From Promethearchaeota archaeon (GTDB lineage Archaea > Asgardarchaeota > Lokiarchaeia > Sigyniarchaeales > SOKP01), in assembly GCA_048941015.1 (NCBI GenBank), contig JBHLNZ010000010.1, forward strand, positions 11,162-75,161: a stretch of 64,000 bases of DNA. Direction: 5' to 3'. Within the stretch, counting starts at the first letter, position 1; every line of letters starts with the position of its first letter. The position numbers were made by a program, and so were the translations under genes. The notes under the pieces were generated by a model. That model had not been told where the DNA came from and searched no databases. It saw only the letters and a list, made by a program, of their open reading frames with translations. Below, piece by piece: positions 49,674 to 63,110 of the stretch.

Positions 49674-50786
49674 TTGATGAGCCTTAAGTTAGAAGATGTA
49701 AAAGGGCTTGGTAAAAAAGCCGAAGATCTAAGGAAAGTAGGAATTGATTCTGTAGAAAAGTTAGCAAACACAAAAGTCGATGATCTACTTAAAATAAAAG
49801 GTATTGGAAAAGCTTCTGCTGATAAATTCATAACAAGTGCTAAGGAGTTAATTAGTGGAGGATCAATTGAGCCCAAGAAGTTATCAGAATCAGCTGCATT
49901 AGCAGAAGAAGATAAAAAAGGTAAAGAGGAACTTAAAAGGTTAGAAGAAAAAAGAAAGAAATTAGAAGGAAAAAAAGTTGAGAATGATGATTTTGTTTTG
50001 GTTAAAATAACTGGCAAAACTCAACGTGGCACAATTTTCCGTGTTTCTTCTGAAGAAGATGCTAAAAAAGCAGGTATATATGATGATCAAAAAGCAAAAC
50101 AAGGCTATTACACTCCAGAGTTTGTAATTGTTGGTAAACCAGGTTTTTTAAATGAGGGATTAACAGAAACTTTACAAGATATGAATTATTTTGAAAAAAA
50201 ATCAGTAAGAGTTCCTCCTTCAAAAGCGTTTGGTAGAAGAGATCCTCAGAAAATTGAAAGAATTGGTATTGCTAAATTTAGAAAATTAAATGATGGTAAA
50301 AATCCTGAAATTGGACAAGAATTCATCAAGAAGGGGACTGGTCAAAGAGGAGTAGTTACAAACATCTTACAAGGAAGAGTAATAGTTGATTATAATCATC
50401 CATTAGCTGGGCAATCAATCGATTATAACTTAGAAGTAGTAGAAAAAATAGAAGAATTCGATGAAAAAATAGAATATTTTATGATTTCAAAGGGTATTCC
50501 AAAAGAAAATGTAAAGGATTTTAAGATTAATTACAATAAGGATAATAAATTATTGGAAATCACTATACCTAAGATGTTCCTTTTTCAGAATTTAACATAT
50601 ATAAAGTTTGGGTTAGCTTTAGACTTGCAAACTCATATGAGTGATGAAATAAATGATGTTAAGTTTATAGAGATCTATGAAAAAATGCCAATCCCTGAAA
50701 GCCCAGCTGACTCTGTTAACCAAAAAGTTGAAGAATTCAATATAGAGCAAGAAGAGAACACTGGAAAGGAGAAAAATAAAAATTAA
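49674..50786 (+). CDS. slyD: Long archaeal FKBP-type PPIase with an extra N-terminal helix-hairpin-helix domain
   Basis: N-terminal LEDVKGLG...LLKIKGIG; core VPPSKAFGRRDP, VDYNHPLAG. Confidence 0.88.
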   Translation: MMSLKLEDVKGLGKKAEDLRKVGIDSVEKLANTKVDDLLKIKGIGKASADKFITSAKELISGGSIEPKKLSESAALAEEDKKGKEELKRLEEKRKKLEGKKVENDDFVLVKITGKTQRGTIFRVSSEEDAKKAGIYDDQKAKQGYYTPEFVIVGKPGFLNEGLTETLQDMNYFEKKSVRVPPSKAFGRRDPQKIERIGIAKFRKLNDGKNPEIGQEFIKKGTGQRGVVTNILQGRVIVDYNHPLAGQSIDYNLEVVEKIEEFDEKIEYFMISKGIPKENVKDFKINYNKDNKLLEITIPKMFLFQNLTYIKFGLALDLQTHMSDEINDVKFIEIYEKMPIPESPADSVNQKVEEFNIEQEENTGKEKNKN

Positions 50787-50810: not shown

Positions 50811-51821
50811 TTATTCAGTTCTGAATTTAGATATAAGCTCTTCTTTTTTAATTTTCTTTTGATCTTTGAATTCTGATTTTTTTTTTTCGTAATCAGCTTT
50901 TTTCCGTTGAAATTCTAATCTTTTCTTTAAAGCTTTCTCTTTTTTAGTATGTTTCTTTTTTAAATATGCTTTTTTAGTCTTTTTAAATTCTTTTTTGGCT
51001 TTCTTATATTCTTTTTTCTTTTTTTTATATTTTTCATACTTCTTTTTTATTTCTCTTCGAAGATTTGGGCTAATTTTTTCTATTCCTAAAGCATTTAATT
51101 GTTTTTTAAAATTATCAAATGACTCAAATCTAATTACTATAATTCCTAACTCTCGAGCAGGAATGAGATTTCTAATTTTGTCATCAATAAATACACACTT
51201 TTTTGGTTTTGTATCTAATTTGTTTAACACATATTTGTATTTTTCTATATCTGGTTTTATCATTCCAAGTTCATTTGAAAGGAATACATTATCAAACATG
51301 TCATAGAATCCTCTTAAATCATTCGACTTAGCGTGAATATCATGAGTATTTGACATTAAACTAACAGTATATCCCGCATTATGTAAGCGTTCAATAATTT
51401 CTGCCATATCGGATGAAATATGTGTTACTTTTGTATAAAGATTAAACCAAAGCTCAATATAATAAGCCACATTCATTCTTTTTGGAGGTAAAGCCCCATT
51501 TTTCTTTTGATAGGGATAATAGTATTTTTCAAAAATTTTTTCTAAAAATTCATTAGAAGAAATAATACCAGAACTTAATCTTCGTTTTAATTTTCTAAGA
51601 TAAGGTTCAGTAAGAATATCAGGAATTTTAATTTTTAAATCATGTTCTAATATGGCGAAAAGATTCTTGAGAACAAAAGTCTTTTCAATTAGAACCCCTC
51701 CAAAATCGAATATAAAGTGTTTGATCTTATAAAGTTTCACTTTTTGTTTTTTAAAGACTTTATTCTCCTTTTTATCAATTTTTTTTGCTTTATATTTCTG
51801 ATCGTTCATTATTAATATCAA
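50811..51821 (-). CDS. HAD-superfamily phosphatase (YihX-like) with Lys-rich C-terminal tail
   Basis: FDFGGV, MSNT, KPD, FIDD..RN; last ~80 aa very Lys-rich. Confidence 0.9.
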   Translation of the reverse strand: MILIMNDQKYKAKKIDKKENKVFKKQKVKLYKIKHFIFDFGGVLIEKTFVLKNLFAILEHDLKIKIPDILTEPYLRKLKRRLSSGIISSNEFLEKIFEKYYYPYQKKNGALPPKRMNVAYYIELWFNLYTKVTHISSDMAEIIERLHNAGYTVSLMSNTHDIHAKSNDLRGFYDMFDNVFLSNELGMIKPDIEKYKYVLNKLDTKPKKCVFIDDKIRNLIPARELGIIVIRFESFDNFKKQLNALGIEKISPNLRREIKKKYEKYKKKKKEYKKAKKEFKKTKKAYLKKKHTKKEKALKKRLEFQRKKADYEKKKSEFKDQKKIKKEELISKFRTE

Positions 51822-52606
51822 ATTTTAATTTTTATATCTTGAAATTTCTCTAAAATTAAATTACATACTTTAGATACAGGATCTCCCTCGCATTTCCAAT
51901 TTGAAAATTCAGGAAAAGATCCAGAATCTACAATGTATAACCTATTCGTTGATTCTTCTTTAACAATATCTAAGTGACCAAATAATAAATTATAATTACT
52001 TTTCCATTTGGTTAAGATTTCTTTAATTTCATTAGAAAAATTGATCTTTTTCACTTCAGCATGCTCATTCATTAAAGGTTTTTTTTCACATACACAGAAT
52101 TCATCACTAATAAAGTAAGCCAAATAATGTTTGCCAAAAATGAATTTTTCTAAGAAAAGAATACCATTATCAATATCTTTAAGATCTTCTTTAGTTTTGA
52201 TAACCTTAACGCCTCTGCTTCCCGATCCCATAATAGGTTTTAAAATTAGAGGATAATCTGAGGATTTAACTTGACTTATTATTGTATCAATAGTGCCTAA
52301 AAAAGTCTTAGGGACTAGAAATCCTGCTTTTTTTGCTAAATGTTTTGACTCAATTCTGTTTTTATTTTTAAATGAAATTTCTGTATTTGGAATAACTGGT
52401 ATTTTATTTGCTTCTAAAAAATAACCTGCGTATAAATAAAACATTTTTTTAGATTTGAGAATGAAAAAGTCATTTTCTAAAAGGTTTTCATCGATGTTCG
52501 AATTATCAGCACTATAAATTTTTACATCCATTCCTTTACTTTCATAATATTTCTTCATTTTGCCTGTAAAGTGTGTTTTTCTCTTAGATAGGATTCCAAT
52601 TTTCAT
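51818..52606 (-). CDS. ATP-grasp protein, degenerate ITPK1/RimK-like
   Basis: PLILKPIMGSGSRGV, FLEKFI, FGHLDIV, IVDSGSFPEF. Confidence 0.8.
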   Translation of the reverse strand: MKIGILSKRKTHFTGKMKKYYESKGMDVKIYSADNSNIDENLLENDFFILKSKKMFYLYAGYFLEANKIPVIPNTEISFKNKNRIESKHLAKKAGFLVPKTFLGTIDTIISQVKSSDYPLILKPIMGSGSRGVKVIKTKEDLKDIDNGILFLEKFIFGKHYLAYFISDEFCVCEKKPLMNEHAEVKKINFSNEIKEILTKWKSNYNLLFGHLDIVKEESTNRLYIVDSGSFPEFSNWKCEGDPVSKVCNLILEKFQDIKIKI

Positions 52607-52619
52607 TTTGATTTCTCAT

Positions 52620-53438
52620 TTAGTTCTTTGCTTGATTAATTAAATAATCGCCTACTATTTTGGGACCATTTTTAATATAATTAAAATTGGGGGATGAATT
52701 AATATCTGTTAAATAAAAATTTCCTTTCTTATCTTGAAGAAAATCAATAGATGCAATTTTTAGATCAATACATTCTATTGCTTTCGAGGTTATTTCCCTT
52801 AATTCTGGAGTTTCATCAATTCTTTTCCGTGATTTCATCTTATTTGGATTTACTAAAATTGGTATTTGTTTATAAAAAAGAAATTCATTACCTATAACAT
52901 AGACTTTATATTCCCATTTACTTTTTATAAATTCTTGATAATAGAGATATTTATAATGCTCTTTTCCTCCTATTGCTTCATTTATAGCTCGTTCATCAGT
53001 TACTGCTAAATTTCCATTTTTCTTTTCAATTTTTGGTTTGAAACTATAATTTTTTTGATCAACAACATTTTTGATAATATAATCATGAAAAGGAGGTAAA
53101 ACACCTAAGGGGGTAATTGAAAAATTAGGAACAAGAATTCCAGCCCTCCTTAATAATGTGCTATTCAGAAATCTATTAAATGCCAACCAAATACTTTTTG
53201 AAGAGTTTATAACAGGAATAGAAGTATTTCTCTCAATTTGTTTTACTAACCCTAGGATTAAATCTCCTTTAGCTTTAACAAAAAAGATATCTTCATCGAA
53301 ATTTGTATCTGATAAGTCTAAAAGGTAATCTTCTTCTACATACAGATTTAAATCTACTTTCGATTTAATGTATTTTAGAAATTCAGTGACCTTTCTTTCT
53401 AAATGGTATTTATCTATGATAAGGCCAATTTTTATCAA
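52620..53438 (-). CDS. ATP-grasp protein, ITPK1-like inositol phosphate kinase candidate
   Basis: YQEFI, EYKVYVIG, IASIDFL, LTDINSSPNF. Confidence 0.75.
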   Translation of the reverse strand: MIKIGLIIDKYHLERKVTEFLKYIKSKVDLNLYVEEDYLLDLSDTNFDEDIFFVKAKGDLILGLVKQIERNTSIPVINSSKSIWLAFNRFLNSTLLRRAGILVPNFSITPLGVLPPFHDYIIKNVVDQKNYSFKPKIEKKNGNLAVTDERAINEAIGGKEHYKYLYYQEFIKSKWEYKVYVIGNEFLFYKQIPILVNPNKMKSRKRIDETPELREITSKAIECIDLKIASIDFLQDKKGNFYLTDINSSPNFNYIKNGPKIVGDYLINQAKN

Positions 53439-53811
53439 GTATTATACCTTGCTGTAAATTTTTTCTATAATATAATCTTTCTAAATTTTTTTCACAATCT
53501 TTACTTAGTTGAAATGAATATAAAATATTTATTTTAAATAAACAAAAGAAATAAATTAAATTTTAATGAATTATATTTCTTTCTGAATTTCTTCTAAGGT
53601 CAATCAAGAGAATAAAGCTAACAAAAATAAATTTTCACATAAATTTTTAGAATTAAACTAACTTTTCTATGTTCTCTTTTATTCATTATAAAACTATTAT
53701 AAAATACTCAAGAAAACTCTGGGATTCAATCTATAAATAACAACTGATATAATCAATACATTTATATATTATGGTTTGTATTTTAACATTCAAAATAATG
53801 GGGTTTTTTAA

Positions 53812-54723
53812 ATGGCTAATAACATTAAGAGAATATACATTGGAGCCATTTGTAATAGAGATCTTGAAGTGTTAGAAAAAATTAAAACCCTATTGTTAAA
53901 AAATTATAATATTACAGTAATCAATTTATTAAAGAAAGATACTTATACTTTTGATTTAGAGTATTTTAAAAAGAAGGTGAGAAAGTATCCAATTTCATTT
54001 TTAATTCTGAAATTGACTACAGATAAATCGAATGAGCAGATATACAATGCAATTATTAAATACGCTCCTAATGTTCCTGTTTTAAATAGTATAAAATCTG
54101 TAAAAACTTGCGAGAGTAGAACAGAAACTTTTAAATTAATTAATAAAACTTGTAAAAATCTTAAAACACCTTCCACCTATCCTTCAATAGAAGATGCTCT
54201 TGAAGCAAGTAAGAATGGAAAGAAAATAATTATAAAACTAGACGCTCATAATATACCTGGTTTACCGAAAAATGATAGGATCATAGGAATAGCTCGTTCT
54301 TCGGAAGATTTCAATGAATTAGTTAGAAACCATAAAGGAAATACACTTTTTTTACAAGATTATCTCGGTAGTTTTGATATAATATATAAAATATATGTAA
54401 TTGGAAGATGGATTGTATCAATCACTTCACATAATCGATTAGATTTGAATGATAATTTGACTCCCTTAGAACTCATACATATCAGAATCCCAGTTGATAA
54501 AGACTTGAAAAGGAGAATAAAAAGATTAGGTCGAAAATTAAATATGTCAGTATTTGGTGTAGATTATATTTTAACTGAAGATGGTCCCTATATAATAGAT
54601 GTTAATGATTTTCCAAGCTTTAGAAGCATACCAGAAGGAGCTAGTCTAATTTCTGATCACATCTATAATTTGATTAACTTACGAGAACAATTTATAAAAA
54701 TTTCAGTAGGAATAAAAAGTTAA
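53812..54723 (+). CDS. ATP-grasp protein, ITPK1-like inositol phosphate kinase candidate
   Basis: FLQDYL, IYKIYVIG, VFGVDYI, IIDVNDFPSF. Confidence 0.8.
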   Translation: MANNIKRIYIGAICNRDLEVLEKIKTLLLKNYNITVINLLKKDTYTFDLEYFKKKVRKYPISFLILKLTTDKSNEQIYNAIIKYAPNVPVLNSIKSVKTCESRTETFKLINKTCKNLKTPSTYPSIEDALEASKNGKKIIIKLDAHNIPGLPKNDRIIGIARSSEDFNELVRNHKGNTLFLQDYLGSFDIIYKIYVIGRWIVSITSHNRLDLNDNLTPLELIHIRIPVDKDLKRRIKRLGRKLNMSVFGVDYILTEDGPYIIDVNDFPSFRSIPEGASLISDHIYNLINLREQFIKISVGIKS

Positions 54724-54724
54724 A

Positions 54725-55816
54725 TTATCTCTCTCTTTTACCTTCTATAAATTCAACTAATCTATCTTTTGCTAGTTGGTCCTCTAATTGTTCTGGAGGA
54801 TGCTTATTAAAAAAGGAGCATGCTGATTGAAGAACCCCTCCAATTTGGCGATCTTTCGCAATTTTAGATACCCTTATAGAATCTGTAATAATACCCGCAG
54901 AATTATTTCCATCCTCTACAAACATCGTTATATCTATTCTAACCGGAGCTCCCCCAAAAATCCTCCCTTCAAGTCTCATATATGCTTCTTTTTGATTTTT
55001 TAAGAATGGAATGTAATCTACAGCAGATATTTGACAATCAATATTTTCTTTATTTTGAAGATTAGCGATTACTGCTTCTGTTTTAGACTGTCGTTTACCT
55101 TCTTCATATACTAGAGAACCATTTGGTTTTGATGTTAAAAGATTGCAGAAATCTGATGACCCTCCCCAGTCTAATTGTAAGGTACGGTCTAGTATAGCTC
55201 CACGCATTGGAAATAGGTTAGTTAATGATCGATGTATAATCGTTGCGCCTATCTGTGATTTTACATCATCACCTATTAAAGAAAGTTTCATCTTTTCAGC
55301 TTTCATGACAATTTCTGGATCTTTAGCGACATGTGAAGGCATTCCATTGATTACACATGCACCAGCATCAAGTGCAGCATTAGCATAAAATTTTACAGCT
55401 TTATGACAGCCGGTTGGAAGTAAAATAACAGCAACATCAACTCCACGAGCATTAATCTCATTACTAGTTTCAGATATTTCTTGATTTTCATCAACAGGCA
55501 CAATATTTTTTATATTACTATCTAAACCATCCAAGATAGGACCTTTAATAACAGGAGCATTTAGATATTCAGGTTCAAAGAGTTTCATATTACAATTGGG
55601 TTCTGCAAAAATAGCTTTACTTAAATCTTTTCCAACTTTATTTGCATTTACATCTATTCCAAGAACAAAATTAATATCATTTATGCTATATTGCGTAATT
55701 TCTGATAAAATCCCTATAATTTTGTGGGGATTTTTCTTATAATTTTCTACTCCTTGAACCAAAGCACTCGCAACATCACCAACTCCTATAAGAGCAACAT
55801 TAATTTTATTCGCCAT
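54725..55816 (-). CDS. ino1: myo-inositol-1(3)-phosphate synthase (minus strand; the track labels it +)
   Basis: Reverse complement of 55816 downward reads ATG GCG AAT AAA ATT (MANKI); motifs GDDVKSQIGAT, SKT, K.AY, ED..NSAG, F.KHPP. Confidence 0.9.
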   Translation of the reverse strand: MANKINVALIGVGDVASALVQGVENYKKNPHKIIGILSEITQYSINDINFVLGIDVNANKVGKDLSKAIFAEPNCNMKLFEPEYLNAPVIKGPILDGLDSNIKNIVPVDENQEISETSNEINARGVDVAVILLPTGCHKAVKFYANAALDAGACVINGMPSHVAKDPEIVMKAEKMKLSLIGDDVKSQIGATIIHRSLTNLFPMRGAILDRTLQLDWGGSSDFCNLLTSKPNGSLVYEEGKRQSKTEAVIANLQNKENIDCQISAVDYIPFLKNQKEAYMRLEGRIFGGAPVRIDITMFVEDGNNSAGIITDSIRVSKIAKDRQIGGVLQSACSFFNKHPPEQLEDQLAKDRLVEFIEGKRER

Positions 55817-56036
55817 GATATTTTTTATAATAAAATTATAATATTTAAATGCTCTCAATAAGGATTATCTGAACCTAATTTCTGTTTTATCTACAGATTA
55901 TTTAAAAATAGCATTAAAAAGGAAATTAAATTCGTAACAATTATTATTTTTCTATAAAATTATAAAGAAAATATTCTAATCTTTTTTAATCATAAAATGC
56001 TTTTTAAAATCAGTATTAATAAATGGATTATTTAAC

Positions 56037-58853
56037 ATGAAAGTAGAAGATAAAAAGATATTCTTTATTCTTTCTCCCCATATCAATTATTATCATTCTT
56101 ATAGAGGGGATTCGAGAGGTGTTTCCGGTTTTGGCAAGGATATACAAATGATGAGTGATATTCTCGACGAATTGGATAAAATTGAAGACAAAAATTTCAG
56201 ATTTAAGGATATGAGAATAACCTGGGATTATGGTGATACATTTTGGTCGATTCAACTTCAGAAAGAATACCAACAAGATGTCCTAGATAGAGTTATTGAA
56301 AGGTGTAAGAATGGTAAGGATGAGGTATTAATAGGATCTTGGGGAAATTGTGCTGCCTCAATTCTAGATACTGAAGAATATATACAACAACATAATTGGT
56401 TTTTGGAAAATTCAATGGGTATTGGAGTTAATCAATTATTTCCTGGAAGAGTTGCTCCTTATATCAGAACTCAAGAAACTATGTTTAGCCAGGGTATGAT
56501 AGAGCTATTTAATAAATTAGGTATTGAAGGAATAGGTATTTATTATTCAAGATATGGATTTGACGCAGCTCGTCCCTTTATCAACCCACGATTATCTTTA
56601 AATCAATGCTATGGTTTAACAAAATTTAAATCAACCATCTCAGAGGCTAGGTGCTTAATGATACCTATGTATGCATTTGGAGATGTACTAGATTTCTACT
56701 CAATAAAGAGATGGTTTGAATTTATTAGGAAAAAGCAAGTTTCTGGCGAAATAAGTGGTCATGCCTTAATTTTTCTTAATTTTGATATGGACTATGGTGG
56801 ATGGGTAGGAATGAAATTACCTAAAATCGCCCAATGGATGCCTAATTCCAGAGGGTTATTGGAATTTGCTGAAGCAGTAGATAAATATGAATATGTTGAA
56901 TTTGGAAATTTATTAGATGTAATACCAAAGTTAGAAGTGCAGGGGGAAGTTTATTTAAGGGAAGATGTAGCTGATGGCATGTGGAATGGATACTATAATT
57001 GGGCTCAGAAGTATAATAACACTCAATTTTGGACTATAGCACAGCGAGCAAGATGGATGAAATCTATATCAGATACCTTGATGTCAGTATCTCTGGTTAA
57101 AGATTCGGTAGATAATGTAAACAATTATTTACGAAAGGATGACGATTCTGAAGAAACTTATATCAAAAATAAAATATTATTTGCTTCCACTACAAACTTC
57201 GGAATGGCAATGCCCTTCCTACATCACCATAGGCGGAAAACTGCAATAAGTTATGTTTTGAGGGCTTTTTCAGCAGCAATAAATGCTGTTGATTTGGCAG
57301 TGCAAGAAGCTGTGCAAAAATTAAAGAATGATTATAAAGACATTGACTCATTTATAATAATTACACCTATTCTAAATAGAGGAATGTCAGAAAAAGAAAC
57401 TATTTCAATTAAATCTCCAATCCTAATTCGATCTGAACTTCCATCCAAATTTTTAGATAAGTTAGGATTCCAAAACAATAATTTTAATTTAATAAATCCA
57501 CTTTCAAATAAAATTATAACAAACTTTGCTATATACCAAAATCAATTAAATTCCGATATTATATTAGAAGCTTTAATACCCTCCGCTGAGTTTGATCAAA
57601 GTGATTACCAAACTCTTGTTCTTTCAATTAAACCCGAAGAATCTTCTCTGAAAGAAAAACCAGAAGAATTATCTGCTACGAAAAGATCGATAAAAAATCA
57701 ATTTATAGATTTAAAAGTCAATGATAATGGGAAAATAAGTTCATTTAAATTTAATGATGTCGAATTTGCTTGTCCAAATTTCTTAAATACTGCAGTTACT
57801 TTTGGAAAAGAAATATATTCTAAAAATAACGAAGTAGAAATCTTGAGAGATGGATCTGATGGATTTTCAGCTTCCATTAAAATTAAAGGCGAGTTTGAAG
57901 TAATTAAAAATTATAAGGTAAAATTTGAAAAGATTCTCACTTCATATACTGGATTACCCCATTTATTTATACGAGTTTTAATGAATATACCAGATATTAG
58001 AGGTGGAGCAACAATTAGGAGAGGAGGAGATGGGTCAACTTATTTTGTTGAAGAAAAATATGATAGTAGATGGCAAGAAATCATGCCATGTGAAATTCGT
58101 CCTAATTTAATTGGACTTGAAAAACCATTAAAGGTTTGGAAAAGAAACTTTCTTGGAGTTGTTGATTATTTTAATCTTGATATGAAAGAGGTTGATCCTA
58201 AAAACGCAGATATCGATTGCCTGGTTGCTAATATATCAGATGGTTGGATGGGTTTGTCAGATCGCGAAAAAGGATTAATTGTTGGCTTTAATTCTCTTGA
58301 GGGAGCAAATTTTGCTTTTTCTCCAATTAAGGTTAAAGATAAGGGTTTTAAAGATATTAAAATTAAAGGTCAACAGGTTAGAATTAATCCTTTTGGAACA
58401 TATTATGGTAAAATTTTTCACTATTGGACAGAGGGAAATGGTCATGCTCAAAAAGTTACTAAAAACCTTATTGAAACCAATTATTCCACTGCCCCTACAT
58501 TCAGTGGAAAAGTAATATCGTTTGAATTATCCATATCACCATATATTGGAAATTCTCCACCAGAATCTATTCAATCCTTTGCTAACCACTTTTCTATGAT
58601 GCCTTTAATTCTAATGGGAACTAGTAAAGATGGTATTCTCCATAATAATTATACAAAATATATTGAATTAGCAGAAAAATTGAAAGAAGAATACCAAGTA
58701 CAAGATCTAATGAAATTGTCTTACATTGAGTGGGTTCGAAAAATTAATGAAAATTTTGATACATCAGCACTAGAAACTTCCTCAATTAAAAAGTCAGGAA
58801 TTCCTATAAGTGTGATTTTAAGGATGTTGATTGATGGAATAAAGGGCAGATGA
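56037..58853 (+). CDS. Large GH38/GH57-like glycoside hydrolase
   Basis: N-terminal SPHINYYHSYRGD metal-site-like motif, RTQET, NFDMD; C-terminal beta-supersandwich-like region (IKNQFIDLKV); family uncertain. Confidence 0.55.
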   Translation: MKVEDKKIFFILSPHINYYHSYRGDSRGVSGFGKDIQMMSDILDELDKIEDKNFRFKDMRITWDYGDTFWSIQLQKEYQQDVLDRVIERCKNGKDEVLIGSWGNCAASILDTEEYIQQHNWFLENSMGIGVNQLFPGRVAPYIRTQETMFSQGMIELFNKLGIEGIGIYYSRYGFDAARPFINPRLSLNQCYGLTKFKSTISEARCLMIPMYAFGDVLDFYSIKRWFEFIRKKQVSGEISGHALIFLNFDMDYGGWVGMKLPKIAQWMPNSRGLLEFAEAVDKYEYVEFGNLLDVIPKLEVQGEVYLREDVADGMWNGYYNWAQKYNNTQFWTIAQRARWMKSISDTLMSVSLVKDSVDNVNNYLRKDDDSEETYIKNKILFASTTNFGMAMPFLHHHRRKTAISYVLRAFSAAINAVDLAVQEAVQKLKNDYKDIDSFIIITPILNRGMSEKETISIKSPILIRSELPSKFLDKLGFQNNNFNLINPLSNKIITNFAIYQNQLNSDIILEALIPSAEFDQSDYQTLVLSIKPEESSLKEKPEELSATKRSIKNQFIDLKVNDNGKISSFKFNDVEFACPNFLNTAVTFGKEIYSKNNEVEILRDGSDGFSASIKIKGEFEVIKNYKVKFEKILTSYTGLPHLFIRVLMNIPDIRGGATIRRGGDGSTYFVEEKYDSRWQEIMPCEIRPNLIGLEKPLKVWKRNFLGVVDYFNLDMKEVDPKNADIDCLVANISDGWMGLSDREKGLIVGFNSLEGANFAFSPIKVKDKGFKDIKIKGQQVRINPFGTYYGKIFHYWTEGNGHAQKVTKNLIETNYSTAPTFSGKVISFELSISPYIGNSPPESIQSFANHFSMMPLILMGTSKDGILHNNYTKYIELAEKLKEEYQVQDLMKLSYIEWVRKINENFDTSALETSSIKKSGIPISVILRMLIDGIKGR

Positions 58854-58888
58854 CAATAAAAAATTAAAATTTATTTGGTGGTCTTAAG

Positions 58889-59902
58889 TTGAATGAAAAA
58901 ATGAGAACATTAATTTTTCCAGAAGCGTGGATTGTTAAACTTATAGAAGTTGAAGTTCCTAAACCAAAACCAGATGAAGTATTAGCTCAGATCATCTCTG
59001 TGGGAATTTGTGGAAGTGATATAGGAATATTTGAAGGTGATCACTGGATAATTGCCCATGAACCAGGAGGACATGGGCATGAAACAGGAGCTATTGCTGT
59101 TGAGGTAGGTAAAAACGTTGAAGGAATAAATGTAGGAGATCATTTAGCACGAATGGGACAAGGTTATGCTGAATATTCGACTTATGTAAATGTTGTTGGC
59201 CATGGTAAAGATGAATTATCTGGGGCATTACCGATAGTCAGAAATGATCTTACCATGGATGATATTTCTTTCGCTGATGCAGTAGGATGTGCAATCAACT
59301 GCTATGAAAGAGCTGAATTCGAGAGAATTGATGGAGATAAAACGGCAATTGTACTAGGATTAGGACCGATTGGGCTCATTTTAACTCAAATTCTACTGAA
59401 CAATGGCATAAAAGTTGCAGCTTCAGAATCATATCATCATAAAAGAGATTTAGCACAAAAATGGGGAGCAGAGGTTTTTGATCCCAATGAATATTCACGA
59501 CCCACTCATGGAAATTATAGTGTTGTGGATGAAATTAGAAAAGAGTTTGGTAACGCTCATGCTGTATTTGAAATGGTTGGTCATAATGATACTTTACTTA
59601 ATGCAGTGGATTTAGTAAAATCTGGACATCGTGTTATAGTTTTTGGTGCCCAAAAAATGCAATATATTCCGTATGTAAACTGTAGGAAAAAAGGAGTAGA
59701 GCTAGTTTATCCCGAAGCAATGGTTAACTCTAAAGCAGACAAAGATTACTGGGATGAAGCTCTTGATTTAATTGCCAGTAAAAAACTTGATTTAAATAGT
59801 TTAATAACTAAAAGAATAACTTTAGAAGAAGCAGTAGACGCATTCAATTATTATGATCGTGAAAAATGGATTAAAATTATAGTTGAGCCTCAGAAAAAAT
59901 AA
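58889..59902 (+). CDS. Zn-dependent (MDR) polyol/sugar dehydrogenase
   Basis: GICGSD, GHE, GLGPIG; lacks the structural-Zn four-Cys lobe. Confidence 0.88.
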   Translation: MNEKMRTLIFPEAWIVKLIEVEVPKPKPDEVLAQIISVGICGSDIGIFEGDHWIIAHEPGGHGHETGAIAVEVGKNVEGINVGDHLARMGQGYAEYSTYVNVVGHGKDELSGALPIVRNDLTMDDISFADAVGCAINCYERAEFERIDGDKTAIVLGLGPIGLILTQILLNNGIKVAASESYHHKRDLAQKWGAEVFDPNEYSRPTHGNYSVVDEIRKEFGNAHAVFEMVGHNDTLLNAVDLVKSGHRVIVFGAQKMQYIPYVNCRKKGVELVYPEAMVNSKADKDYWDEALDLIASKKLDLNSLITKRITLEEAVDAFNYYDREKWIKIIVEPQKK

Positions 59903-59917
59903 AAAAAAAAGAATTTT

Positions 59918-61201
59918 TTAAACTTTTTTTAGAGTTTCTTTAACTATAAGAAAGAAAGGTATTGAAATAATGAAAAATATAGCAGCAATTACAAAAATCC
60001 ATTGCAAACCAAGAATCTCTGCAGCCAAACCTCCTGCAAATGCGCCTAAAACCTGAGATATTGTATAAACAATATTAAATATTCCATAAAATTGTCCTCT
60101 TTTGTTAATAGGCAATGTATCCTGTGCCCAGGCGTTAATAATAGTATCTAGACCAAGTAAACCAACTAAAATGAAAGGTAATAATACTACGAATAAAATA
60201 TAATTAAAAGTAGCTCCACTTCCTGCAAAGATCACTGAACAATATGCGATACTAATAATTACTATGATTAAAGGCAAAAATCTTTTTCGTCCGAATTTAT
60301 CAGCAAGTTTTCCTAAGTAGATTACAATGGGAAAAAGTAAAATGAATCCAACTGCAACAGCAATTAATAATTCTAGAGTGGATAAACCTTGATCAAAAAT
60401 GAAGATGAACAAAAAGGGCATTACTGATGCGATTCCTGATTGAAATACTGTAGCTGCAAGAGTGATTTTATAAAATTCTTTTTGATTTTTGATATCGCTT
60501 AGATTAAAAGTCTCCTTCAATTCTGTAATGAATTTCTTCTTGGGAGGTAATTCTGAAGTTGATTTTTCTTTTATAAAAGTAAATCCAATTATTCCACAAA
60601 CGGCAAAAAATAAACCTCCAATAGTAAGTAGAATAAAATGTCCTTCTTGTGGAATAATTGTTCCCCCACCTGGACCAGGAACACCGAATAATTCATTACC
60701 AAGCAAGAAAAAAGCAAGTGCTATAATTAATCCAAGGTATGAAACTGCTTGTATGATACCATTAGCACGCCCCCTATGTTCTAAATCTACTAAGTCTGGA
60801 ATAATTGCACGCTCTGCGGAAGAATAAGCATTAGAAGTGACACCAATAAGTACAACATCGATAATAACACAGAGGATGTAGCTATTAGATAAACCATAGA
60901 AAATCATTCCGAGTCCCGCTAAAATTCCAAAAAGGAAAAATGGTCTTCTCCTACCAAATTTCGATCTTGTATTATCACTTATTATTCCCCAGACAAAATT
61001 CATAATTAATCCTACCACTGCAGATAAAGCAACCATTACAGAAATATAGATTTCGGAAAGGTTTAGAACATGGTCTAAGTATGTATTAAAGAAATTTTGC
61101 TCGAAAAAGAAAAATACACGATCTGCTGCCCAAAGGATTCCAATGATAATTACCTGTATTAATAAAAAACGACTAAATTTTTTTCTTTCCAATTTAATCA
61201 C
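59918..61201 (-). CDS. MFS sugar/glycoside transporter (minus strand; the track labels it +)
   Basis: Reverse complement from 61201 reads GTG ATT AAA TTG GAA; WGIISDNTRSKFGRRRPF, GKLADKFGRK. Confidence 0.9.
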   Translation of the reverse strand: MIKLERKKFSRFLLIQVIIIGILWAADRVFFFFEQNFFNTYLDHVLNLSEIYISVMVALSAVVGLIMNFVWGIISDNTRSKFGRRRPFFLFGILAGLGMIFYGLSNSYILCVIIDVVLIGVTSNAYSSAERAIIPDLVDLEHRGRANGIIQAVSYLGLIIALAFFLLGNELFGVPGPGGGTIIPQEGHFILLTIGGLFFAVCGIIGFTFIKEKSTSELPPKKKFITELKETFNLSDIKNQKEFYKITLAATVFQSGIASVMPFLFIFIFDQGLSTLELLIAVAVGFILLFPIVIYLGKLADKFGRKRFLPLIIVIISIAYCSVIFAGSGATFNYILFVVLLPFILVGLLGLDTIINAWAQDTLPINKRGQFYGIFNIVYTISQVLGAFAGGLAAEILGLQWIFVIAAIFFIISIPFFLIVKETLKKV

Positions 61202-61356
61202 CTAAATTCTAGTTAAAATAGAATCTTATGAAGTATTAGAACCAATAATTTTTAAGAATAACCATTTATTTAACAAGATTGTAATCTTAATTTAGTTGTA
61301 AAATTTGAATATTAGAAATACTAACGATTATATAGAAAGTATTTTTTTGATTTAGC

Positions 61357-62250
61357 ATGAGTAAAAAAGTAGTGTTTTCAGCACGACAAAATCATGAAAT
61401 TATCAATGCTATAGTTAATAATCTATCAAAAGCGAGAGGTATTGATCTTTTTATTCATGATCCTACAAAACATTTTTTTTATCTATCTAATGTACCTAAG
61501 CAAATTCAGGAGGCAGATTTAATTTTAGTAAAAGTGAGAAATGAATGTTCTGTTGACCTTTTACATTATGCAAAAATAAATAATATCCCGACTTTGCACG
61601 ATGTTGATACCGTTTTGATGTGTAAAAATAAAGTTGCACTAGATTATGCCTTGAGAAAAGTTTTTAAAGAAAATTCTAATGATTTAAAAAATTTTTCATT
61701 ACCTAAGGCATGGACTCAAAACCTAAAATATAATAAAGATTTCGACAGCTGGGCTAAAGCTAAGCTACCGATTGTTATAAAGAGCCATTATCAGCATGAT
61801 AAGTGGAATCGATTTACATTTTTAGTTAGAAAATTAGATGAGATTATCACTTTTCGTAAAATGTATGAAAAGTTTTTAACTTATGATGTGTATATTCAAA
61901 AATTCATCGATTGTGATGGAATTGAAAGAAAAGTATATGTGGTAGGGGATAAAGTTTTTGGAATTCAGAGAGAAAACCCAATATATCTTTTTATGAGAGA
62001 AAATCTAAGTAAGATTAAAGTAAATACTATAGAGAGAAATGAATTCAGAATAACGGATGAAATTAAAAGATTAGCAAAAATTTTATCAAAAGGATTAAAT
62101 CTGAAAATTTTTGGATTTGATTTAATCAAACCTATCGAACAGCATCGTTTTTATTTGGTTGATTTAAATGATTTCCCTGGTTTTAGAGGCATAAATAACA
62201 TAGAAAAGATACTTTCAGATTATTTAAAGAATTTTATTTTAAATTCTTAA
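61357..62250 (+). CDS. ATP-grasp protein, ITPK1-like inositol phosphate kinase candidate
   Basis: PIVIK, YIQKFI, RKVYVVG, IFGFDLI, LVDLNDFPGF. Confidence 0.82.
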   Translation: MSKKVVFSARQNHEIINAIVNNLSKARGIDLFIHDPTKHFFYLSNVPKQIQEADLILVKVRNECSVDLLHYAKINNIPTLHDVDTVLMCKNKVALDYALRKVFKENSNDLKNFSLPKAWTQNLKYNKDFDSWAKAKLPIVIKSHYQHDKWNRFTFLVRKLDEIITFRKMYEKFLTYDVYIQKFIDCDGIERKVYVVGDKVFGIQRENPIYLFMRENLSKIKVNTIERNEFRITDEIKRLAKILSKGLNLKIFGFDLIKPIEQHRFYLVDLNDFPGFRGINNIEKILSDYLKNFILNS

Positions 62251-62258
62251 GCCTAAAT

Positions 62259-63110
62259 CTATAAAAGAAATACAGGGACAATAATAATAAAAGATATTAC
62301 TCCATAGAGTATGCAAAAATAGCCAAATCCAACTTTTTTTGCTATCTTGAGTAGGAATTCCATAGAGAGATAGCCTACAATGAAACTAATTACTGTAATT
62401 AATAGTATAATCAAAGGATGAATCATTCCGAATATAGATCCTTCTCCAAAAATGATATCAACTCCAATGGAAGCTAGTGCAACTGGAACTGATATTAGAA
62501 AACTTAACTTTAAAGCATTATTTTGCTCATAATTTTCTAACATTATTGCTGAAATAGTAAATCCTGACCGAGAAACTCCAGGTAAAATCGCGGCTCCTTG
62601 AAATAATCCCGTTATTAGAGAATCTTTTTTCAATTGATTTTTATTGATATTTAAAACGGTTTTTGTACCAAATTTCTTTCTAAATTTAAGTATAAATATT
62701 CCAGTTATGATTAGAAATCCGGAAATAATTAAAGTAATAAGATCTCCATGAGAGGCTGTAAAAACTCCTAAGATAATAATTCGAAAAATAAAATATAAAG
62801 GTAAAGCTACGATAGCAGTACCAACTGTGGCATAAATTATCCAGTTCCTATTCCTAATTGCCATCTCGTCACTTTTAAATTTCTGTGGAGCTAAAGCTTT
62901 AATAATATTAACATATTCGCTTCTAAATTTTAAAAGTACTGCAAATGTTGTACCTAAGTGCAACCAGATACTAAGGCTAAATGCTACTTCTGAAGAGATT
63001 CCAAAAAAATTAATAGCAACGATCATGACTTGTCCAGAAGAGGAAATTGGTAACCATTCTACTAAACCTTGTAATATAGCGATAATAACATATTCAATCA
63101 TATTATTCAC
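62259..63110 (-). CDS. uppP: Undecaprenyl/polyprenyl-diphosphate phosphatase (BacA family)
   Basis: LQGLVEWLPISSSG, LHLGT, PGVSRSG, SFL.S.P. Confidence 0.93.
   Translation of the reverse strand: MNNMIEYVIIAILQGLVEWLPISSSGQVMIVAINFFGISSEVAFSLSIWLHLGTTFAVLLKFRSEYVNIIKALAPQKFKSDEMAIRNRNWIIYATVGTAIVALPLYFIFRIIILGVFTASHGDLITLIISGFLIITGIFILKFRKKFGTKTVLNINKNQLKKDSLITGLFQGAAILPGVSRSGFTISAIMLENYEQNNALKLSFLISVPVALASIGVDIIFGEGSIFGMIHPLIILLITVISFIVGYLSMEFLLKIAKKVGFGYFCILYGVISFIIIVPVFLL

Follow-up and report, generated by a model that had tools for sequence, protein, structure and literature searches.

Gene content and layout of the locus

This analysis concerns a gene cluster in a Lokiarchaeal genome (Promethearchaeota archaeon, GenBank assembly GCA_048941015.1; 3.59 Mb in 144 contigs, 95% complete) in which four ATP-grasp proteins, here named AG1 to AG4, are encoded around the gene for myo-inositol-3-phosphate synthase (MIPS/Ino1). 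The window, meaning the whole stretch of DNA that was analysed, comprises 64,000 nucleotides of contig JBHLNZ010000010.1 (positions 11,162 to 75,161), and all coordinates given below are those of the window. Ten open reading frames (ORFs) occupy positions 50811-63110, in the order HAD (-), AG1 (-), AG2 (-), AG3 (+), MIPS (-), a gene for a 938-residue protein (+), Zn-dehydrogenase (+), MFS transporter (-), AG4 (+) and UppP/BacA (-).

The genes for AG3 (53812..54723, plus strand) and MIPS (54725..55858, minus strand) are convergent, with one base between their stops. On the other side of AG3, across an AT-rich intergenic region of 373 bp (53439..53811) which presumably carries promoters for both directions, the compact 272-residue protein AG2 is encoded on the minus strand (52620..53438); it is followed after a gap of 13 nt by AG1 (51818..52606, minus strand), which in turn overlaps by 4 nt the gene for a HAD-IA (YihX-like) phosphatase with a Lys-rich C-terminal tail (50811..51821, minus strand), the last gene of an AG2-AG1-HAD operon. 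AG4 (61357..62250, plus strand) lies apart from these genes, towards the far end of the locus. A scan for promoters and terminators returned fewer sites than in shuffled sequence; the consensus used is bacterial and is uninformative for an archaeon.

The clustering of ATP-grasp genes with MIPS exceeds chance, because both matches to PF05770 (Ins134_P3_kin) in the genome, AG3 and AG4, and its sole MIPS gene sit here, and because the gene order recurs in 20 genomes. At E<=1e-5 the only relatives of AG2 within the genome are AG4 and AG1. The original prediction for this stretch, which proposed that MIPS and ATP-grasp genes of the ITPK1 family form a cluster, is borne out in this respect, and its ORF coordinates and spacings are exact. 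It had further stated that the locus lacks a CDP-alcohol phosphatidyltransferase or IPCT/DIPPS gene, and a family scan of the ten ORFs of 50811-63110 indeed gave no match to a CDP-alcohol transferase or nucleotidyltransferase; four CDP-alcohol transferases are encoded on other contigs, and two IMPase-family genes are found elsewhere in the genome.

AG3 and AG4 as members of the ITPK1 family

By sequence criteria, AG3 and AG4 are true members of the ITPK1 family. Both exceed the Pfam gathering cut-off of PF05770 (23 bits), AG3 with 29.1 bits and AG4, the most ITPK1-like protein in the locus, with 55.4 bits, and the solved structures closest to them by sequence are the human, plant and potato ITPK1s. 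AG3 carries the motifs QDYLGSFDIIYKIYVIG and DVNDFPSF; its best sequence match in the PDB is human ITPK1, whose catalytic residues align with K193, D251, D263 and N265 of AG3. AG4 carries QKFIDCDGIERKVYVVG and DLNDFPGF, and its residues K192, D255, D269 and N271 align to the Lys and the D...D-x-N of ITPK1; in the alignment to maize ITPK1, which places K192, R205 and D269-L-N271, R205 is the equivalent of R212. Among solved structures the AG4 profile (A4) matches only ITPK1, ITPK4 and PPIP5K, and the UniRef label of the AG4 orthologue from Loki's Castle is an inositol 1,3,4-trisphosphate kinase-type protein. The catalytic Lys and the D...D-x-N are invariant in the orthologue alignments of AG3 and AG4, and equally in that of AG2.

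The archaeal proteins share with eukaryotic ITPK1 (human 2QB5/2ODT, Entamoeba 1Z2N, maize 7TN5) the ATP-grasp fold, the strand Lys in Q-x-[FY]-[IL]...K-[VI]-Y-V-[VI]-G (human K199), the metal ligands D...D-x-N (human D281, D295, N297) followed by F-P-[GS]-[FY], and the absence of a Gly-rich loop; the Arg that AG4 keeps aligns to R212 of the human as well as the maize enzyme. They differ in being shorter (297-303 residues) and in having other basic residues in the loop which replaces the Gly-rich loop, and significant alignment to the eukaryotic proteins is limited to the C-terminal half.

AG2, a compact ATP-grasp with a kinase-type signature

AG2 carries the motifs QEFIKSKWEYKVYVIG and DINSSPNF, and alignment A2 assigns its active site to K178 (in YKVYVIG), D232 and D245-I-N247. 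Neither AG2 nor AG1 matches PF05770 at E<=0.01. In profile comparisons (hhalign), AG2 was matched over its full length to AG4 (97.1%, 244 columns). Orthologues of AG2 with 57-77% identity occur in 27 of 40 other sampled genomes of the same family (genera g1, g2, g6 and g7), and none was found in the sampled genomes of other families.

A search of 1.84 billion representatives places AG2 within a wider family of compact ATP-grasps of 245-285 residues, in which N78, K123, K178, D245 and N247 are nearly invariant. By Pfam, 10 of 33 members of this wider family match RimK and 10 of 33 match Ins134_P3_kin; the nearest relatives of AG2 other than its orthologues match only Ins134_P3_kin, and do so weakly. 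No fused AG2-AG1 protein was found among the best 150 representatives, and the long matches P0219, P0183, P0227 and P0234 contain one ATP-grasp domain each. The gene for one family member, P0126, is followed by a gene for a 248-residue protein and is divergent from an NTP_transferase gene. The NTP_transferase family comprises inositol-phosphate cytidylyltransferases and sugar nucleotidyltransferases.

The nearest folds to the AG2 model are ArgX/LysX (Z 23.4), then RimK, PPIP5K2 (Z 21.0) and maize ITPK1 (Z 20.1); Foldseek searches with the same model do not separate LysX, RimK, ITPK1, PPIP5K and synapsin, all of which are matched at about E 1e-14. LysX/ArgX and RimK (5K2M, 3VPB, 4IWX) are alike in size (~270 residues) and overall fold to AG1 and AG2, whose models superpose on them with Z 22-25 and root-mean-square deviations of 2.6-3.4 over ~250 residues. 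It is in the active site that AG2 departs from these ligases: it has a Lys and D-x-N where they have an Arg and E-x-N, and it lacks both the Gly-rich loop and the substrate motif W-R-x-N-x-x-x-GG (R-x-N-x-x-x-GG in RimK). The four-part signature of RimK/LysX (the Arg of D-x-R, E-x-N, the Gly-rich loop and R-x-N-x-x-x-GG) is wholly absent (0/4) from AG2, AG3 and AG4, in agreement with the claim made at the outset that these three carry a Lys and D-x-N of the ITPK1 type rather than the Arg and E-x-N of RimK. The best NCBIfam ligase scores are all under cut-off (rimK_fam 143.4, LysX 275.6, MptN 350 bits), at 38.9 bits for AG1, 52.7 for AG2, 26.6 for AG3 and 42.5 for AG4.

The two kinds of signature scarcely mix among 74 relatives of AG2: D-x-N occurs with Lys in 33 and with Arg in none, and E-x-N with Lys in five and with Arg in 36, an association which is inflated by relatedness, the proteins having been chosen by similarity to AG2. 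In a tree with a weak backbone, calculated on a sample drawn in the same way, the E-x-N/Arg proteins form one group (SH-aLRT 96) and AG2 falls in a separate clade with D-x-N/Lys proteins (SH-aLRT 99). We conclude that AG2 would work like an ITPK1-type kinase while standing outside PF05770, and we regard its family as a candidate new group of small-molecule ATP-grasp kinases between the RimK/LysX ligases and ITPK1.

AG1, a degenerate ATP-grasp and probable partner of AG2

AG1 is encoded directly after AG2 in every case, including two contigs with distant versions of the pair (L044 and L047, see below). In Pfam it matches ATP-grasp_3 (25.9 bits), and profile comparison (hhalign) relates it to AG2 (95.9%, 247 columns). 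Alignment A1 shows that AG1 keeps the ATP-binding Lys, a classical Gly-rich loop (GSGSRG) and two acidic metal ligands; at the Lys/Arg position it has a Leu, and in place of the Asn a Gly (D227-S-G229), both of which are kept in 19 orthologues. Compared with LysX/ArgX/RimK, therefore, the Gly-rich loop is retained, being the only part of the four-part signature that AG1 has, whereas the Arg/Lys and the Asn are missing. The AlphaFold2 model of AG1 (pLDDT 92.6) is nearest to LysX/ArgX (Z 25.1), and ITPK1 is not among its top 50 structural matches. The simplest reading makes AG1 a probable partner of AG2, either non-catalytic or atypical.

The proposal of four ITPK1-like proteins thus stands in part. 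It holds for AG4 and AG3 by their PF05770 scores; AG2 and AG1 are not matched by that family, and for AG1 the description fails altogether, the Lys and Asn being absent and the fold closest to LysX/ArgX (Z 25). The two ITPK1-type motifs that had been quoted are present in AG2, AG3 and AG4, and AG1 has neither. The further suggestions of the original prediction, that HAD would be an eraser and that the paralogues may share out the phosphorylation steps, are speculative, and to speak of four ITPK1-like kinases with an eraser overstates the case.

MIPS and the HAD phosphatase

The MIPS protein scores 74.5 bits against PF01658 (cut-off 27), 24.3 bits against NAD_binding_5, slightly under the cut-off of 25, and 291 bits against TIGR03450, under the equivalog cut-off of 638; translation probably begins at the ATG at 55816. 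The MIPS proteins of such clusters score 74.5-77.5 bits against PF01658, compared with 107-123 bits for the best MIPS genes of relatives which have AG4 alone, and by sequence the cluster MIPS appears as a divergent type. A profile search gave it as the single match in the genome; since there is no second copy, the inositol needed for lipids must come from it too.

The HAD phosphatase scores 56.4 bits against PF00702 (cut-off 26.4), and its best NCBIfam matches, TIGR02247 and glucose-1-phosphatase, are both under cut-off, the latter equivalog with 59 bits against 295. Translation of HAD probably begins at the ATG of residue 5. Motifs D39-F-G-G-V, S157/N158, K189 and D213/D214 are kept in 14 of 14 orthologues. 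In the YihX type, motif I has the form D-x-G-x-V. The HAD protein agrees with the E. coli YihX-type HAD-IA sugar-phosphate phosphatases in this motif, which lacks the second Asp, and in the Ser/Asn of motif II, the Lys of motif III and the DD of motif IV. What sets it apart from them is a C-terminal tail of ~90 Lys-rich residues (KKEYKKAKKEYKKAKKEYLKK-like, window 50811-51080), the length and pattern of which are kept in 14 of 14 orthologues; because it is kept in all of these, we take the tail to be a selected feature rather than random low complexity. Its position in the operon suggests that the HAD protein may act as an inositol-phosphate phosphatase. The upstream neighbour of the HAD gene encodes an FKBP with an N-terminal helix-hairpin-helix domain (49674-50786), and the same FKBP gene adjoins HAD on its upstream side on a Loki's Castle contig (L053:105-1232).

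Conservation of gene order

Gene order was compared across 20 related genomes, which represent four genera within the family of the present one, and can be written as (HAD)-AG1-AG2 | AG3-MIPS | (938-aa, ADH) (MFS) AG4-UppP, where ADH is the Zn-dehydrogenase. AG1, AG2 and AG3 are present in all 20 loci, MIPS in 19, AG4 in 16 and HAD in 12. The genes between MIPS and AG4 are less constant. An MFS transporter (59918..61201, minus strand; MFS_1 162.7 bits in the window) is found in 11 of 20 loci and adjoins AG4 in other genera too; the 938-residue protein (56037..58853, plus strand) is full-length in four loci, with one fragment, and the Zn-dependent medium-chain dehydrogenase (58889..59902, plus strand; Pfam ADH_zinc_N and ADH_N) is full-length in three, again with one fragment. 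These three genes are variable passengers and not part of the core. The 938-residue protein has no Pfam match; language-model features alone make it GH57/GH38-like, which we note as a lead only. Its gene travels with that of the dehydrogenase, and the pair also adjoins AG4 in another genus (L064). As to the dehydrogenase itself, the best NCBIfam matches (IolM-like and threonine dehydrogenase) are far under their cut-offs, and assignment as an inosose dehydrogenase was rejected, since the IolM match, with 86.6 bits where 450 are required, ties with the one to threonine dehydrogenase.

Distant relatives show that the AG2-AG1 pair and MIPS stay together in other arrangements. Contig L044, with an AG2-like protein of 43% identity, has the order TIM-barrel, AG3-like | AG2-like, AG1-like, MIPS, and in contig L047 (34% identity) MIPS, AG2-like and AG1-like genes run head to tail on one strand. 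Counting the present lineage, the pair adjoins MIPS in three, whose AG2-type proteins are 100%, 43% and 34% identical to AG2, and since this adjacency outlasts both divergence and rearrangement, it argues for a function. The AG3-like gene in L044 is co-directional with, and overlaps by 4 nt, the TIM-barrel gene, which is of the xylose-isomerase-like AP_endonuc_2 type (L044:6117-7759). The AP_endonuc_2 family takes in the inosose-handling enzymes IolE and IolI.

AG4 behaves differently from this block. Its context was sampled in ten further genomes, nine from four other genera of the family and one from a neighbouring family. In six of the ten, AG4 adjoins UppP, and some also have the MFS transporter, the dehydrogenase or the 938-residue protein nearby; MIPS was located on other contigs in four of five AG4-only genomes checked, with Pfam scores higher than that of the cluster MIPS. 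UppP/BacA is a polyprenyl-diphosphate phosphatase (in the window 62259..63110, minus strand; PF02673 160 bits), and it and AG4 are convergent neighbours across genera (L056-L065), even where MIPS and AG1-AG3 are missing. The adjacency of AG4 to UppP is more conserved than that of AG4 to MIPS. Two blocks are therefore juxtaposed at this locus, AG1-AG2-AG3-MIPS with or without HAD, and AG4-UppP with or without the MFS transporter, the dehydrogenase and the 938-residue protein. Loss of conserved linkage to MIPS had been named beforehand as an outcome that would speak against the proposed cluster; the linkage persists for the AG1-AG2-AG3 block and does not for AG4. PF05770 itself is present in 36 of 40 genomes of the family, in one of three from the neighbouring family, and in none of the 157 genomes that represent the remaining 25 families of the sample.

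Relation to the published Lokiarchaeum locus

The core idea, a cluster of MIPS with ITPK1 homologues, was published in 2019 together with a partial functional test, and the statement in the original prediction that such homologues had been reported in Lokiarchaeota proves correct. That paper describes four ITPK1 homologues in Lokiarchaeum, LcIKA-D, arranged as two pairs which flank two IPS genes, an arrangement from which it proposes inositol or InsP1 as the original substrate of ITPK1, and it reports that LcIKC partly restores InsP6 in yeast plc1-delta (Desfougeres et al., 2019, PNAS, PMC6900528). A review from 2021 and a preprint from 2026 restate the ITPK1/IPS finding in Lokiarchaeum.

Metagenome contigs from Loki's Castle carry the same cluster, HAD-AG1-AG2 | AG3-MIPS | AG4-UppP, and on them AG3-type and AG4-type genes directly flank MIPS. 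On one contig (L052:3425-4311) gene calling splits the AG3-type gene into parts of 183 and 106 residues, which points to a frameshift, or else to misassembly, in this copy. AG3 has an Arg, R156, that is invariant among its orthologues and fits the "Arg156" of LcIKC (PMC6900528), and AG3 is probably of the orthologue type of that protein; from this residue and the Loki's Castle gene order, we infer that LcIKA-D map onto the AG3 and AG4 types. The two loci are alike in lineage and, judged from the Loki's Castle contigs, in gene order, and they share the idea of a lipid-independent route from glucose-6-phosphate through inositol-3-phosphate to inositol polyphosphates. They differ in that the present genome has one MIPS gene where Lokiarchaeum has two IPS genes, and in that the main text of PMC6900528 mentions neither the AG2-AG1 pair nor the HAD phosphatase. 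No description of the pair or of the HAD protein was found in the literature searched, and the AG2-AG1(-HAD) module, like the uncharacterised family to which AG2 belongs, appears to be new.

Interpretation of the locus

We favour the reading that this locus is the genome's copy of a Lokiarchaeal locus for soluble inositol phosphates, and would put its probability at about 0.6. MIPS would convert glucose-6-phosphate to inositol-3-phosphate, the established function of its family, and AG3 and AG4 would use ATP to phosphorylate inositol monophosphate onward, an activity suggested by the published partial rescue with LcIKC. AG2, AG1 and HAD would be co-transcribed, divergently from AG3; AG2 would most likely add a phosphate to inositol or to an inositol phosphate, with AG1 most likely as its non-catalytic or atypical partner, and the YihX-like HAD protein may remove phosphate, either trimming isomers or recycling them to inositol.

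Several observations weigh against this proposal. AG2 and AG1 are nearer to LysX/ArgX/RimK than to ITPK1, both by sequence against solved structures and by fold; the single Pfam match of AG2 over cut-off is RimK, with 22.3 bits against 21; and the association of signature residues was counted in relatives selected by their likeness to AG2. HAD is absent from 8 of the 20 loci, MIPS was not found near the distant AG2-family members P0129, P0135 and P0146, and none of AG1, AG2, AG3 and MIPS lies within 10 kb of AG4 in the ten further genomes. In addition, the published rescue of yeast was partial and concerned one Lokiarchaeum homologue (PMC6900528).

The points on fold and family scores could also mean that only AG3 and AG4 are kinases, and that AG2 and AG1 are carboxylate-amine ligases of the RimK/LysX type. 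In that case the AG2-AG1-HAD block would produce or alter a compound that is derived from inositol or bound to a carrier, for example an amino-acid conjugate, with HAD removing the phosphate of inositol-3-phosphate. The best solved relatives of both proteins are indeed LysX/ArgX and RimK (Z 25.1 for AG1 and 23.4 for AG2, with ITPK1 at 20.1 or lower), the NCBIfam models that fit them best are MptN and rimK_fam (39-53 bits), and AG1 retains the classical Gly-rich loop. Yet those scores are far under cut-offs of 143-350 bits, AG2 has none of the Arg, E-x-N, Gly-rich loop and R-x-N-x-x-x-GG and falls outside the E-x-N/Arg clade, and a ligase, too, would need the Asn and the Lys/Arg that are missing from AG1. 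LysX-type systems also differ from the AG2-AG1 locus in their carrier, since no gene for a LysW-like protein is present among the ten ORFs scanned; taken together, we consider a ligase function unlikely. A different departure from ITPK1 would be for AG2 to resemble PPIP5K and phosphorylate a phosphate group, so that the cluster makes inositol pyrophosphates or a related phospho-anhydride. The Pfam RimK model, the one that matches AG2, also covers the kinase domains of PPIP5K, and PPIP5K2 (Z 21.0) ranks slightly over ITPK1 (Z 20.1) with the AG2 model. A difference in Z of less than 1 is a tie, however, no match of AG2 to PPIP5K was found at the level of sequence, and no IPK1- or IPK-type kinase which could supply InsP5 or InsP6 was found (the IPK family, PF03770, is absent from this 95% complete genome); we hold this to be very improbable.

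The neighbourhood could also reflect lineage-specific synteny without any common pathway, the paralogues having arisen by local duplication and acting on unrelated substrates, and MIPS serving archaetidylinositol lipids only. PF05770 is essentially confined to one family (36 of 40 genomes, against 1 of 160 elsewhere), AG4 stays with UppP and not with MIPS in other genera, and the sole MIPS must feed lipid synthesis in any case. Against this stand the adjacency of MIPS, AG2 and AG1, which outlasts rearrangement at 43% and 34% AG2 identity, the spacing of the genes, which overlap or lie <=13 nt apart, and the published action of a Lokiarchaeum homologue on inositol phosphates in yeast (PMC6900528). 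An origin of the cluster in synteny alone seems to us quite improbable.

The locus for soluble inositol phosphates may be carried one step further. AG2-AG1 might be a prokaryotic inositol (poly- or pyro-)phosphate kinase of a new kind, composed of two proteins, a catalytic and a degenerate ATP-binding subunit, and genetically tied to MIPS in several lineages, which together with the ITPK1 pair and a HAD protein whose poly-Lys tail binds its polyanionic substrate would form a complete pre-eukaryotic system of writers and erasers; this extension is tentative, and we think it rather doubtful.

In the study of eukaryogenesis it is still open whether inositol-polyphosphate signalling preceded the eukaryotes. 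The case published so far consists of ITPK1 homologues beside IPS in one Lokiarchaeum assembly, and the cluster described here is conserved across four genera. Within it, the tightest linkage to MIPS is that of AG3 and of the previously undescribed AG2-AG1 pair, often accompanied by a phosphatase, and not that of the most ITPK1-like gene. The locus thereby offers a defined and small set of proteins with which the pathway may be reconstituted from glucose-6-phosphate.

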